A DNA stretch of 64,000 nucleotides from positions 1 through 64,000 of the IMG/VR virus record IMGVR_UViG_3300037247_001786, one strand, 5' to 3'. Below, one piece after another: positions 2,105 to 8,431 of this stretch. Positions within the stretch are counted from its first letter, which is position 1. The number at the start of each line of letters is the position of its first letter. A program made the position numbers and the translations under genes. The DNA is from a virus (Duplodnaviria > Caudoviricetes). The notes below the pieces were generated by a model. The model was not told the DNA's origin. It saw only the letters and a program-made list of their open reading frames with translations, and ran no database searches.

Positions 2105-3811
2105 ATGAATTGGTACCTTAAAAATATATTTGCTCAAGCAACAGGAATGCTCGGCTATCTAGAAAGCCTTGGAGCGACCCCAGATATTGTGCAATATATC
2201 AGCTCTTTAGATCCTAATTTCGGACAGATATTAATTAATGAATTTAGAAAAAATCCATCTTTAACTATCGAACAATTACAAGAAATACAATCTCCTCAAG
2301 AAATACAGCCGTATACTGAACATGAATTAAGAAAAGCAGTTGGCTATCCTGAACCATTTAAAAAATGGCTTCTAGTTAATCTTAGAAAGATAAGAATAAG
2401 TAAAGAAACTGCTCCACCAAATCAAAAACAATTAATACATAGTTATTATATGAATTTTATTGAAGACTTGCCAAACCTGTACGATTGGGCAACAAGATCT
2501 AATCCTAATCTTGATCTCTCTTCTTATGATGCTTCAGCAGCGATGGACGCTTCTGATGAATGGCACAACATGATGGCTGGAGCTGGAGAAGGAAAAGGTT
2601 ACGAACCAACAATACCTCAGTTAGTCTTATACGGTCCAGAATGGAAAAATCCAGAATGGCAAGGATGGACTATTCAAAAAGTTATAAGTGAAAATGATTT
2701 ATTAGCAGAAGGAAATATAATGAATCATTGTGTTGGATCATACTGTGAAGATGTTCAATCTGGAAATAGTACGATTTATTCCTTAAGAGATCCTGGAAAT
2801 AATCCTAAAGTAACCATAGAGACTAATAGCTATAATGAAGCAGTCCAGATACAAGGTAATTCTAATTCAAATCCAGATGACCAATATAAAGCAATGATAA
2901 AAGAATGGCTCACAGGAGATAAAAATCCTGGTATTAACTCTTTTGAAGAAGGCGAAGATCCTTTAAATGAAATTAGTTATGGATATGACTCAATAGAAGA
3001 TGTCGTAGATATTATTGAGTCATTAGGAGATGGAGAATATGGTATCCCTAGAAAAACAAATTGGACCCCTAAAGATATGGCAGAGATGGCTATAGATATG
3101 GAAGAGCATAGACGAGAGCCTTCTTATGATGGAGCGATAACTGATATGCCAGATGCTATTATTAATTTCGCGATAAAAGAATATGGAGATAGCCCTGAAA
3201 CGTTAGCAAATATGCTGAGAGAATTAGAAGAGTATGCTCAATCTCTAGAAGAAAAAATATATGACTATGCTCATTCAAATTGGGATATGTCATGGATGGA
3301 ACGACCTAGTGAGGAAGATTTTGAAACTAATGAAGAATTTTTGAAGGCTGAGGACGAAGCTCTAGATGCTGAAGGAGACTATATAGGAGAGGAAGTTAGA
3401 AAAACTCTTCAAGGAGGTCTCTCGGCAGACCTATTTAAAATCATGAATAAATTAAGAGAGAAGAAGATAATCCCTGAATATGTTCATGAACCCGAAGTAG
3501 TAGCCTCTTCTAAAAATTGGTACAAGCACGCTGGACCAGTTGTCCAGTTTCTATCTTATGACTCTTATGACGAATTTAAAGTCCTTATAAACGGTCAAAC
3601 ATATGTGTATTATGATGTCTCTCCTTTCTGGTCAGAAAGATTACAATGGATGATCAAAAAGCTTCCTCCAGGAGTTGTAATACAAAAATTGAAAAACTTT
3701 AGTAACCCTCAAAGATATAAAGAACTGCACCCCCCTGAAGATCATACAAAGCAAGAAAAACAAGAAATGCTTAATGAGTTAGATGAAAGAGGATTATTAG
3801 GAAATAATTAA
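2105..3811 (+). CDS. MNWY-tag multidomain protein: PcfJ-like domain plus C-terminal KTSC-like module; paralog of 36646..38436
   Basis: ENDLLAEGNIMNHCVGSY...IYSLRD...PKVTIE is PcfJ-like. There is an internal KNWYKHA, followed by YDSYDEFKVLINGQTYVYYDVSP (KTSC-like). Confidence 0.65.
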   Translation: MNWYLKNIFAQATGMLGYLESLGATPDIVQYISSLDPNFGQILINEFRKNPSLTIEQLQEIQSPQEIQPYTEHELRKAVGYPEPFKKWLLVNLRKIRISKETAPPNQKQLIHSYYMNFIEDLPNLYDWATRSNPNLDLSSYDASAAMDASDEWHNMMAGAGEGKGYEPTIPQLVLYGPEWKNPEWQGWTIQKVISENDLLAEGNIMNHCVGSYCEDVQSGNSTIYSLRDPGNNPKVTIETNSYNEAVQIQGNSNSNPDDQYKAMIKEWLTGDKNPGINSFEEGEDPLNEISYGYDSIEDVVDIIESLGDGEYGIPRKTNWTPKDMAEMAIDMEEHRREPSYDGAITDMPDAIINFAIKEYGDSPETLANMLRELEEYAQSLEEKIYDYAHSNWDMSWMERPSEEDFETNEEFLKAEDEALDAEGDYIGEEVRKTLQGGLSADLFKIMNKLREKKIIPEYVHEPEVVASSKNWYKHAGPVVQFLSYDSYDEFKVLINGQTYVYYDVSPFWSERLQWMIKKLPPGVVIQKLKNFSNPQRYKELHPPEDHTKQEKQEMLNELDERGLLGNN

Positions 3812-4179
3812 TTTTCTTCATTCTCTTTTTCTTTTTTAATTTGATCTAATATATCAGCGAGCGTCTGATGTTTCTCTTGTACAATATCTTCAATAATTTT
3901 ATCTAGGCTTACAGCATATCTCCAATCACTTATAAATATTGGTTTATCTTGTCCAGGATCTCCATTCACAACGTTATTAAAGTGTTCCCAAGATTCAAGC
4001 TCCTCCATATCATGATCATCTATCAGAATTTCTAAACAATCATCCGTATTGTAAATAGCTACTATTTTTCCTCCAATAGCTCTTCCCGTTCCGATAATAG
4101 CCTTATCAAATCCTTTAATAAATATAGCGTCAGAATTGAATTCTTTAATAACTTGTTTAATTTCTTTCGGTTCAGCCAT
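3808..4179 (-). CDS. Phage hypothetical protein, paralog of 4180..4470
   Basis: DAIFIKGFDKAIIGTG...VAIYN resembles EALFIDG...FNDALIGWG...VAMYD in the neighbouring gene. Confidence 0.7.
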   Translation of the reverse strand: MAEPKEIKQVIKEFNSDAIFIKGFDKAIIGTGRAIGGKIVAIYNTDDCLEILIDDHDMEELESWEHFNNVVNGDPGQDKPIFISDWRYAVSLDKIIEDIVQEKHQTLADILDQIKKEKENEEN

Positions 4180-4470
4180 TTATGCATTCCTCAAATCGCA
4201 GACATATATAGGAGTTGCTTCCCCCATATATGCTCCAATAATATTATAATCATACCACTCATTTGCTTCTCTATAACTCATCCCATATTTGGTTTCAAGG
4301 ATAGATATTATCTTATTGACATCATACATAGCAACAGGATCTAAAGCACATCTTTCTCCCCAACCTATTAAAGCATCATTAAATCCTTCCTTATCGCCAT
4401 CAAGACCATCTATAAAGAGAGCTTCTTCGTTTCTCTCCTCTATTTCTTGTTTAATACCTTTTCCGTTCAT
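4180..4470 (-). CDS. Phage hypothetical protein, paralog of 3808..4179
   Basis: Shares the motif above, directly abuts the neighbour, and has a promoter-like motif at ~4478-4507. Confidence 0.7.
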   Translation of the reverse strand: MNGKGIKQEIEERNEEALFIDGLDGDKEGFNDALIGWGERCALDPVAMYDVNKIISILETKYGMSYREANEWYDYNIIGAYMGEATPIYVCDLRNA

Positions 4471-4580
4471 AGTTAAATATTATAACGATATATGTATCAC
4501 TTTCCAACATAAAATAAAGGTTTTTAGAAAAAATAGACGAAAATATAAAGTGAATATTATAAATATAAAAGGATAGAGAT

Positions 4581-7304: not shown

Positions 7305-7305
7305 T

Positions 7306-7794
7306 ATGAACTGGTATAAACAAGCACAATTAGATTTAAGTCCTGATCAGAAAACGATAGATAATTTTAATAACAACAAAGAATCTAAAGAGCCATATTA
7401 TAGGAGTATGGAGTTAGTCCCTATCGAAGTTCTTAAAAAATATAGGGAATACGATAGACTAAAAAAACCTATGAGTAGAGAAATATATGAAAAATTAAAA
7501 GCAGATATTATGGCAAATGGGATTAAAGATATAGCAATAATTATGTACGGAACAGAAACAGATACAGCTATTCTTGGAGAAGGAAATCATAGATTAGCAA
7601 TAGCAGAAGAACTTGGGATAAAAGCAATTCCAGTTAGAGTTTACAGGCAGAGGAATACTTATCAACATAGTGACGAATCTTTTCCTCCTCAAAAAGTAAG
7701 AGGAGTAATAAGAGAAGAAGATGAATATGGTTATGAAAAACATATTCCTGCGGACCTTTCTCCTTCTCATATAGGTATAGGGGATTTGGAATAA
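7306..7794 (+). CDS. MNWYK-tag ParB/Srx-like domain protein
   Basis: Start moved to MNWYKQAQ at 7306. Contains LKADIMANGIKD...ILGEGNHRLAIAEELGIKAIPV. Confidence 0.75.
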   Translation: MNWYKQAQLDLSPDQKTIDNFNNNKESKEPYYRSMELVPIEVLKKYREYDRLKKPMSREIYEKLKADIMANGIKDIAIIMYGTETDTAILGEGNHRLAIAEELGIKAIPVRVYRQRNTYQHSDESFPPQKVRGVIREEDEYGYEKHIPADLSPSHIGIGDLE

Positions 7795-7795
7795 T

Positions 7796-8431
7796 ATGAA
7801 CTGGTACAAACAAGCACAACAAAAAAATATAATAAGTAAAATGGTTTCTATTATAGGGATGGCAACTGTTTTATTAGTATTGTCTTTTAAGGGAATGACA
7901 ATGCAAGAGTTATCTCAAGAATATCAAATGAATCCTCAAAAAGTTATTCAAGAAGCAAAACAAATTGAAGAAATGCAATTCCACCCAAAAGAAGTTGAAC
8001 AAATTCCTATTCAAGAAACATCCCCCAAAGCTATTTCTGGACCCATAGATTTAGATAAAATATGGACAATAGAGTCATCAAGAGGAACTGATCCAAGAAT
8101 GAATGAACCTAATACTTCTGGGGCTTTAGGACATTTTCAATTTTTGAAAGGCACATGGGACGAGATGGTTTCTAAGATGGGTAAAGATTGGGACTGGAAA
8201 ACTGGTGCCCTCGATTATAATAAAAGCAGAGCAGTAGCTGATTACTATTTTAATAAAAGAATACCTCAAATGTTAAATTATTATAAAATACCAGATACCG
8301 TAAAAACAAGAATAGCTTGTTATAGTTGGGGAATCGGTCATCTTAAAAATGAATATGAAAATTATAAAGAAAATTGGGAACGAGTAGCCCCACAAGAAAC
8401 TATTGATTATTTTGCAAAGTATGGAGTTTAA
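7796..8431 (+). CDS. MNWYK-tag lytic transglycosylase (SLT/lysozyme-like) with hydrophobic N-terminal segment
   Basis: IWTIESS (catalytic Glu), GALGHFQFLKGTW, IACYSWGIG. Confidence 0.75.
   Translation: MNWYKQAQQKNIISKMVSIIGMATVLLVLSFKGMTMQELSQEYQMNPQKVIQEAKQIEEMQFHPKEVEQIPIQETSPKAISGPIDLDKIWTIESSRGTDPRMNEPNTSGALGHFQFLKGTWDEMVSKMGKDWDWKTGALDYNKSRAVADYYFNKRIPQMLNYYKIPDTVKTRIACYSWGIGHLKNEYENYKENWERVAPQETIDYFAKYGV

Follow-up and report, generated by a model that had tools for sequence, protein, structure and literature searches.

The first 64 kb of G000, a single virus contig of 460,978 bp and 34% G+C from an uncultivated phage (IMG/VR record IMGVR_UViG_3300037247_001786), form the stretch analysed here, termed the window; other G- and L-numbers label the genomes and loci that were compared. 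Its source, a marine sediment metagenome, is the only full holder of the G000 sequence, and none of the RNA runs searched hold it. The major capsid protein (MCP; genome 80615-81487, phrog_2522 E = 3e-63) shares 55% identity with gp27 of the closest cultured relative, Bacillus phage G. Ten genes of the window begin with the peptide MNWYKxAQ or a variant of it, hereafter the tag (Table 1), and all tagged starts listed by an earlier sequence-only reading were verified. Six-frame translation of the window shows the tripeptide NWY 16 times; 10 copies stand directly at a start codon and two at internal domain junctions (3515, and 37068 on the minus strand). Exact MNWY starts are found in 13 of the 672 open reading frames (ORFs) of G000 against 0.022 expected from composition (Poisson p = 6e-32), and at residues 2-4 of the G000 proteins no tripeptide is more frequent than NWY. 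Two further starts, MPNWY and (GTG)VNWY, bring the total to 15; the tagged genes beyond the window lie at 100217, 101697, 109119 (minus strand), 266480 and 438045.

The tagged genes of the window encode unrelated bodies. The sequence-only reading had named these bodies, and its PcfJ (twice), DUF5661 and GNAT labels proved solid. The ART-PolyVal match falls just under the cut-off, and the ParB-like identity comes from PHROGs (1e-9 to 5e-4). The SLT match is weak and the nucleotidyltransferase-like match, on the weakly tagged 203-aa protein, very weak (Polbeta E = 0.044); the KTSC domain that had also been named was not recovered. In the lytic-transglycosylase-like protein, a hydrophobic stretch that resembles a transmembrane segment follows the tag; a tagged homolog of this protein is present in L029.

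Table 1. Tagged genes, neighbouring genes and promoter-like boxes in the window, and the head module beyond it.
Feature	Position	Strand	Details
Promoter-like box TAAAATAAAGG	2066..2074	+	39 nt 5' of the first tagged gene
Further copies of this box	4512; 39470; 58948	+; -; +	each ahead of a tagged operon
PcfJ-like protein, 568 aa	2105..3811	+	tag variant MNWYLKNIFAQ (2105-2137); PcfJ E = 5e-13
Second, internal tag of this protein	3512-3535	+	KNWYKHAG; precedes a ~98-aa C-terminal module
Papain-like C1 peptidase	4581..6662	+	carries an intein with HNH; shares its operon with four tagged genes
DUF5661 protein, 143 aa	6680..7111	+	tag MNWYKMAQ; DUF5661 E = 1e-7
63-aa mini-protein	7113..7304	+	tag MNWYKQSK, linker, poly-K stretch, C-terminal motif HSLDIHCDGVDDGY
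ParB-like protein, 162 aa	7306..7794	+	tag MNWYKQAQ; phrog_17439 6.5e-10, phrog_620 ParB-like 5e-4
Lytic-transglycosylase-like protein, 211 aa	7796..8431	+	tag MNWYKQAQ; SLT E = 0.0013, under cut-off
Sigma70-like cTTGAAAGTGATTT box, examples	10311, 23538, 27709, 28630, 29042, 45074, 47174	all -	
203-aa protein	33189..33800	+	TTG start; weak tag STWYQKC (SSWYEKC in L012); two internal K-x-A-[QS] sites
GNAT acetyltransferase, 138 aa	36233..36649	-	tag MNWYKIAQ; GNAT E = 2e-7
PcfJ-like paralog, 596 aa	36646..38436	-	tag MNWYLKNIFAQ
Internal tag of this paralog	37048-37071	-	KNWYKIAQQ; begins a 140-aa 'IGH' module
Relic tag	38708..38728	-	AAC TAG TAT AAA ATA GCA CAA; TGG -> TAG, no ATG; just past the stop codon of the ART-like gene
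ART-PolyVal-like ADP-ribosyltransferase (ART), 134 aa	38733..39137	-	tag MNWYKIAQ; E = 1.6e-6, just under Pfam cut-off
terL, large terminase subunit	57074..58948	+	start of the head module; two tagged genes 0.7 kb downstream
79-aa protein, no assigned function	59655..59894	+	tag variant MPNWYEKAKAQ; 0.7 kb 3' of terL
138-aa protein, no assigned function	59878..60294	+	GTG start; tag (M)VNWYKQS
785-aa protein, head module	64945 (beyond window)		begins ...QSWYKKNITSQ
Portal, head module	71380 (beyond window)		
Giant protease-scaffold, head module	74390-79894 (beyond window)		followed by a decoration-like protein
MCP, head module	80615 (beyond window)		

Sequence, placement and distribution of the tag

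A profile of 97 non-redundant copies reads M1-N2-W3-Y4-K5 (87%)-x6-[A 59% / I 18% / S 12%]7-[Q 54% / K 26%]8, and its information content is down at background from residue 9 onward. The codons for the tag Asn and Tyr vary (AAT/AAC, TAT/TAC) and the DNA 5' of the tag ATGs is unrelated between copies, which indicates that the conserved and selected element is the peptide. We therefore regard as very improbable the proposal that the element acts as nucleic acid, as a translation-initiation enhancer or a cassette recombination joint with the peptide as a by-product. This proposal would account for an identical 21-mer that occurs three times within 36-39 kb next to a decayed fourth copy, for the overlapping stop and start codons of tagged arrays, and for the Asn2 codon, which is AAC in 8 of the 15 tags versus 21% of Asn codons genome-wide and may reflect a codon-2 bias for translational efficiency. 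It conflicts with the free variation of synonymous sites across ~100 copies, with the unrelated upstream DNA and with the occurrence of the motif at C-termini.

Among 116 copies placed in called ORFs, ~86% are N-terminal, ~6% stand at internal domain junctions and ~6% lie within 25 residues of the C-terminus. Met1-Asn2 placement is seen in about 93% of the N-terminal copies. The pattern [KR]-x-[AS] falls within residues 4-12 in 90 of 103 tagged N-termini, and Q is the next residue in 54 of those 90. Placement at a strictly free N-terminus is also what an N-terminal degradation or stability signal would require, for instance a ClpX-type N-motif (polar-hydrophobic-hydrophobic-basic-hydrophobic) that limits the lifetime of potentially toxic effectors. 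N-W-Y-K-[I/M/L/F] resembles the reported N-motif 1 of ClpX, and cargo of this kind, such as ART and nucleases, is among the tagged proteins. Position 6, however, is usually K or Q and not hydrophobic, and such a signal leaves unexplained the conserved internal and C-terminal copies and the link to a motif of the head module described below; we consider a degron quite improbable.

No model in Pfam or NCBIfam covers the tag. A literature search found no paper that describes an MNWYK tag, and the paper on polyvalent proteins (PMC5512222) makes no mention of such a motif. As far as found, the eight-residue tag MNWYKxAQ is undescribed in the open literature and in family libraries.

The genome-wide motif search that the sequence-only reading had proposed, when run, returned the 15 tagged proteins of G000 and ~100 in relatives. 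A degenerate DNA pattern for MNWYKxAQ has 33 loci in IMG/VR, and the tag is carried by about 100 proteins on some 25 IMG/VR contigs of related huge phages. The contigs checked are either genomes of 173-548 kb that are complete or nearly so, or pieces rated by CheckV at 14-19% of a genome. Genes adjoining the matches are very often tagged too, and the longest runs of consecutive tagged genes comprise 17 (L022), 12 (L033) and 8 (L008) genes. Complete relatives have 1-12 MNWY starts versus 0-1 for a reversed control pattern. Prokaryote genomes totalling 596 Gb gave just 11 matches to the pattern. Chance accounts for nine (frames that are short and non-genic, or one isolated in-frame match), and the other two are phage-like contigs of metagenome-assembled genomes with 3-4 tagged genes. 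Phage G, LR745208 and Tunturi_5 (the latter two more distant relatives) were considered as candidates for a cultured tag-bearing phage, and M-x-W-Y-K starts were found in none of the three. The published particle proteome of phage G (PMC12484599) is thus not directly applicable. On this distribution, the tag belongs to one clade of huge phages. Two of its genomes, G008 and G007, hold few tagged genes, with 2 and 1 exact MNWY starts, respectively, plus MSWYK/MAWYK variants.

Proteins that carry the tag

Beyond the families of the window, the cargo of 100 tagged proteins includes PNK-type AAA_33 kinases, cREC_REC, 2H-SAK, methyltransferases, multi-HTH proteins, Tad6, an HSP90-like ATPase, a phosphoribosyltransferase (PRTase) and a complete glucose-6-phosphate dehydrogenase (G6PD), and the largest family has no more than four members. 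Tagged proteins are short, with a median of 160 aa and 80% at or below 250 aa; the few multi-module proteins are the two PcfJ-like proteins of the window and a 1,235-aa protein in L018.

Several observations mark the tag as separate from the body that it precedes. On the otherwise normal G6PD it is an extension of 13 residues. DUF5661 homologs in a collection of 5.8 billion proteins begin MNW[YF]K or MSWYK in 26 of 45 cases, and more distant ones begin at the DKIPGG core. In AlphaFold2 (AF2) models the tag is a short low-confidence helix that is unpacked against the body. The 130-aa free-standing tagged protein at genome 266480 can be aligned, residue for residue, to the module behind the internal tag of the PcfJ-like paralog, so that tag plus module constitute the evolutionary unit. 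The tag is a portable, modular add-on on unrelated folds.

A portable peptide of this kind could also be a generic linear docking motif for a hub other than the capsid (the ribosome, RNA polymerase, the nucleoid or another phage complex), which would concentrate RNA- and protein-modifying enzymes there. Docking would suit the range of positions of the motif (N-terminus, linkers, extreme C-termini), the free and flexible peptide of the AF2 models, and a cargo rich in enzymes for RNA, tRNA or nucleotides (CCA-adding enzyme, PNK-type kinases, cREC, 2H, PRTase, GNAT). It does not explain why the K-x-A-Q half of the tag matches a motif enriched only in the head module, or why Met1-Asn2 placement is nearly invariant, and no candidate hub was found. 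We judge this proposal unlikely.

The commonest tagged cargo is a previously undescribed ~125-aa 'IGH' module with the invariant pattern Y..GH...W...H...GR...S and no Pfam match. It occurs at L003:2481-2873, at window 36646-37071 (minus strand), in L022 (13 paralogs), and in L023, L012 and L034. A fold search with this module (AF2 pTM 0.63) gave only weak gelsolin/ADF-like and phosphohistidine-phosphatase-like matches, none significant. A second conserved peptide is located at the extreme C-terminus and consists of a poly-K stretch followed by C..HSLD[MI]HCDG[GV]DDG[WY]-stop, which could be a metal-binding motif or another tag. In the window it belongs to the separate 63-aa tagged gene, and elsewhere it forms the tail of the DUF5661 proteins P0010/P0030 and of an 805-aa protein (L033:2062-4479).

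Two regions of G000 beyond the window hold further copies of the motif. A conserved module at genome 265780-270491 (L003), syntenic with L009 and L026, encodes a RuvC-like protein, two tagged small proteins, a 216-aa protein and a ~800-900-aa CCA-adding/poly(A) polymerase+HD enzyme. One of the small proteins begins MGWYK in G000, and the enzyme has an NWY motif ahead of a ~100-aa SH3-like C-terminal domain. At genome 438693-440747 (L004:2694-4748), a 684-aa M78/IrrE-like (MPTase-type) peptidase begins MNIKKFLHKIAQ, which places K-x-A-Q at residues 9-12. A TASNWYSR motif stands 104 aa before the C-terminal end of this peptidase, whose gene adjoins a tagged 132-aa gene.

Head module, K-x-A-[Q/S] motif and promoter-like boxes

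The giant protein of the head module comprises 1,834 aa (L049:10390-15894). Its N-terminal ~240 residues form a head-maturation protease (phrog_18299 3e-8; gp19 of phage G), and the remainder (aa 263-1834) is acidic and repeat-rich (ETITEDQL) with Cys-rich blocks. Homologs of 1,830-2,000 aa are found in L056, L057, L059, L008 and L058. The extension is absent from phage G. It is present in 6/6 complete or near-complete tag-bearing genomes and in 0/3 tagless relatives, a suggestive association between tag and extension.

Positions 5-8 of the tag (K-x-A-Q) match a motif, K-x-A-[Q/S], that is enriched in the head module. Nine head-module proteins contain 24 copies of K-x-A-[Q/S] versus 3.4 in composition-preserving shuffles (about 7-fold) and 12 copies of K-x-A-Q versus 1.3. 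Seven scrambled-order versions occur at expectation, and the close variants R-x-A-[QS], K-x-A-[TN] and K-x-S-[QS] are mildly enriched. Outside the head module the motif is not in excess, with 44 copies versus 48.5 expected in the rest of the proteome and 11 versus 8 in the bodies of tagged proteins. The enrichment of the AQ dipeptide alone was set aside in favour of this composition-controlled test. In the giants of five relatives, 44 sites are found versus 7.8 expected, and they occupy conserved alignment columns. The head module of phage G has the same K-x-A-S enrichment (13 versus 3.2) and phage G has no tags, which suggests that the protease specificity is older than the tags.

The positions of the motif in the giant point to the protease. 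[IV]-K-[TL]-A-S lies immediately N-terminal to the protease domain in 6/6 giants, and in G000 and its closest relative K-K-[IV]-A-S follows directly after it. About ten K-x-A-[QS]-type sites are present in the giant; in G000, one of them is KKIA↓S (residue 264) and another is YKPA↓Q (residue 1749), which lies 85 aa before the C-terminal end (the arrow marks a putative scissile bond here and a scissile bond in herpesvirus sites below). In G007 the giant is encoded by two genes whose boundary falls exactly at ...M|KLAS (the bar marks this boundary), and the giants themselves begin MA[IMF]xKxA, resembling the tag. These positions around the protease domain, together with the herpesvirus comparison below, make K-x-A-[Q/S] a putative cleavage motif. 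Prediction of a four-chain complex of protease domain, conserved giant domain, MCP and tagged DUF5661 protein returned no answer (score 0.00) and counts neither way.

Tagged genes also lie near head genes: they flank terL in G000 and the MCP gene in L008, L013 and L024. In L024 (2558-3085, minus strand) and L013, which belong to G008 and G007, the gene immediately after the MCP gene encodes a 175-aa phosphoribosyltransferase-like tagged protein (...VYFVDNVITKGTT...).

De novo k-mer analysis of the upstream regions of G000 yielded candidate promoter boxes. TAAAATA[AG]AGG is located 35-85 nt 5' of six tagged operons (2105, 4581, 39436 on the minus strand, 59017, 100217 and 101697; Fisher p = 1e-6) and also ahead of the giant-decoration-MCP operon and of other genes at 64-135 kb. 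A sigma70-like box, cTTGAAAGTGATTT-N-TATAAT, has 37 copies and heads metabolic and early-looking minus-strand blocks, never a tagged gene. A third box, GCCAGAGT, has 83 copies that are confined to 360-440 kb. The last two boxes look like distinct temporal classes, and the tagged genes appear to be co-regulated with the head genes. A generic scan for sigma70 promoters and terminators around tagged genes gave no more sites than shuffles. The sequence-only reading had placed the tagged genes with structural genes and terL and apart from the metabolic block. The two tagged genes 3' of terL, the box in common with the MCP operon and the absence of the sigma70-like box from tagged genes agree with this; the distant tagged genes at 266 and 438 kb do not.

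The C1 peptidase that is encoded in a tagged operon is another candidate enzyme to act on the tag. In this proposal, which we hold to be improbable, the tag is a cleavage or junction site of the peptidase with W-Y-K at P3-P2-P1, and the N-terminal copies are junction relics of a split polyprotein. An aromatic P2 and a basic P1 suit the specificity of the papain family. The peptidase has an intact catalytic set (Q/C/H/N), has the promoter-like box in common with tagged operons and is embedded in such operons in G000, L011 and L033, which are diverged genomes; internal tags at domain junctions and tag-plus-module units that occur both fused and free would fit as well. Nevertheless, it belongs to a very widespread family and is absent from the complete tag-bearing genomes G003, G007 and G008. 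It is not beside the tags in G006 (nearest ~27 kb) or L060, and in G009 it is ~4.5 kb from the nearest tag. Trimming only MNWYK lacks an evident purpose, and relics would not remain invariant across about 100 proteins. Absence from three complete tag-bearing genomes and non-adjacency in G006 and L060 rule the peptidase out as a universal reader of the tag.

A candidate propeptide for head loading

The reading that we favour, tentatively, is that MNWYKxAQ is an N-terminal propeptide that marks clients of the head-assembly core, in the manner of the capsid-targeting sequence (CTS) of T4, with K-x-A↓Q as the recognition motif of the prohead protease. Positions 5-8 of the portable propeptide would be recognised by the assemblin-like protease, and N-W-Y would lengthen the site on its N-terminal side and may confer affinity on the tagged proteins. 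The tagged enzymes (ART, GNAT, ParB-like nuclease, PcfJ, DUF5661, transglycosylase and others) would be produced alongside the head proteins and would enter the procapsid with the protease-scaffold core. When the protease fires, the tag would be trimmed, and the enzymes would stay in the head and then be delivered with the DNA. Cleavage after A-Q had been raised earlier as a question; a cut between A and Q is more likely on the analogy with assemblin-type sites. Packaging, cleavage and injection of tagged proteins are predictions from sequence. The idea that the tag addresses proteins to the capsid draws support from its modular nature, the polyvalent-type repertoire, the K-x-A-Q match to the head module, the common promoter-like box and the co-occurrence with the giant, and is weakened by cargo that is not typical of injected effectors.

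Several points weigh against the propeptide reading. About 12% of the copies are internal or extreme C-terminal, and some are without a clear K-x-A-[QS]. The co-occurrence of tag and giant is confounded by phylogeny, with maybe a single clade involved. Phage G has the motif enrichment but no tags, so that the motif alone does not yield a tag system; the enrichment marks a common sequence feature and not proteolysis. The tagged genes at 266 kb and 438 kb are far from the head module and without a promoter-like box, and TAAAATA[AG]AGG is not conserved ahead of tagged arrays in relatives. G6PD, PRTase, multi-HTH proteins and the CCA-adding enzyme are odd cargo for a virion or for injection.

The closest functional parallel would be T4. 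The T4 CTS ends in the prohead-protease motif L/I-x-E, which is also found in other head proteins. Its sequence, MKTYQEFIAE, bears no resemblance to MNWYKxAQ, so that the claim is one of analogy and not of membership in the T4 family. The internal proteins of T4 are diverse anti-defence proteins that have only the CTS in common, which loads them into the scaffolding core (PMC3012670). Like the tag, the CTS of IPI/IPII/IPIII (Rao & Black 2010, PMC3012670) is a short N-terminal peptide on unrelated, fast-evolving accessory or anti-defence proteins encoded in variable gene clusters. The two differ in length (10 residues for the CTS versus 8) and in motif (L/I-x-E↓ versus the putative K-x-A↓[Q/S]). 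Unlike T4, the present case concerns a phage G-like lineage with a herpes-style protease-scaffold fusion, has broader cargo (15 per genome, metabolic enzymes included) and some internal or C-terminal copies, and is known from sequence alone. The novelty would be a putative propeptide of the capsid-targeting type that belongs to a distant lineage and ends in another cleavage motif.

Phage prohead proteases have the same fold as the herpesvirus assemblin enzymes. We know of no use of the assemblin site in herpesviruses as an N-terminal tag on foreign cargo. The UL26 protease-scaffold of herpesvirus is cleaved at an R site (YLQA↓T) and an M site (VQA↓S) (PMC4498786). Like the giant, it fuses an N-terminal protease to a scaffold; its sites combine Ala at P1 with a P1' residue that is small and polar, and they lie just behind the protease domain and close to the C-terminal end, one at each place. 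The candidate sites of the giant agree with the assemblin type in their small P1 and P1' residues and in their location, flanking the protease domain and near the C-terminus. The giant differs from UL26 in its clade-specific Lys at P3 and in its number of sites, about ten.

The tagged set also resembles the polyvalent proteins (Iyer, Burroughs, Anand, de Souza, Aravind 2017, PMC5512222) in its ART-PolyVal, PcfJ, ParB-like, GNAT, M78/MPTase-like peptidase and lysozyme/SLT domains, and for both groups delivery with the DNA and processing by a peptidase are predicted. Whereas a polyvalent protein is one giant polypeptide, the tagged modules are mostly separate small genes with a tag each, and no MuF or portal fusion was seen. 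A split polyvalent-protein system, as had been proposed earlier, agrees with the domain repertoire (ART-PolyVal, PcfJ, ParB-like, MPTase) and with modules that are both free and fused, and departs from the 2-15 effector domains per polypeptide of that class. A MNRYDIALGKKPPP tag in another phage of ~469 kb is likewise a lineage-specific N-terminal peptide on many unrelated proteins; sequence and phage differ from the MNWYKxAQ case.

A wider proposal, which we rate as possible but rather doubtful, is that a phage G-related clade of 170-550 kb has turned a head-protease motif into a portable address label, and that any MNWYKxAQ protein is taken into the procapsid by the clade-specific ~1,800-2,000-aa giant, trimmed and delivered with the DNA. 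If true, each of these phages would inject an easily reshuffled set of enzymes that may number 15 or more (among them an ADP-ribosyltransferase, an acetyltransferase, a nuclease, kinases and even metabolic enzymes). The tag would then be a readable rule for the head-carried, first-acting proteins of uncultivated megaphages, by which candidate early effectors and anti-defence proteins could be picked from metagenomes. The T4 CTS principle would extend to a distant lineage with a herpesvirus-like layout of head assembly, and the 8-residue tag could be tried as a means to load foreign proteins into large capsids. The propeptide reading also predicts K-x-A↓[S/Q] specificity for the maturation protease of the phage G type, and phage G is cultured.

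Two other features of the window are recorded here. Directly 5' of the first tagged gene, window 3-2066 encodes a near-pure Ser/Val/Ile/Asn repeat protein (S-rich tracts of >550 aa) with a globular C-terminus of ~120 aa; this gene runs off the contig start. A second intein-containing gene, at window 49625-53308, encodes the large subunit of ribonucleotide reductase with an intein and LAGLIDADG.

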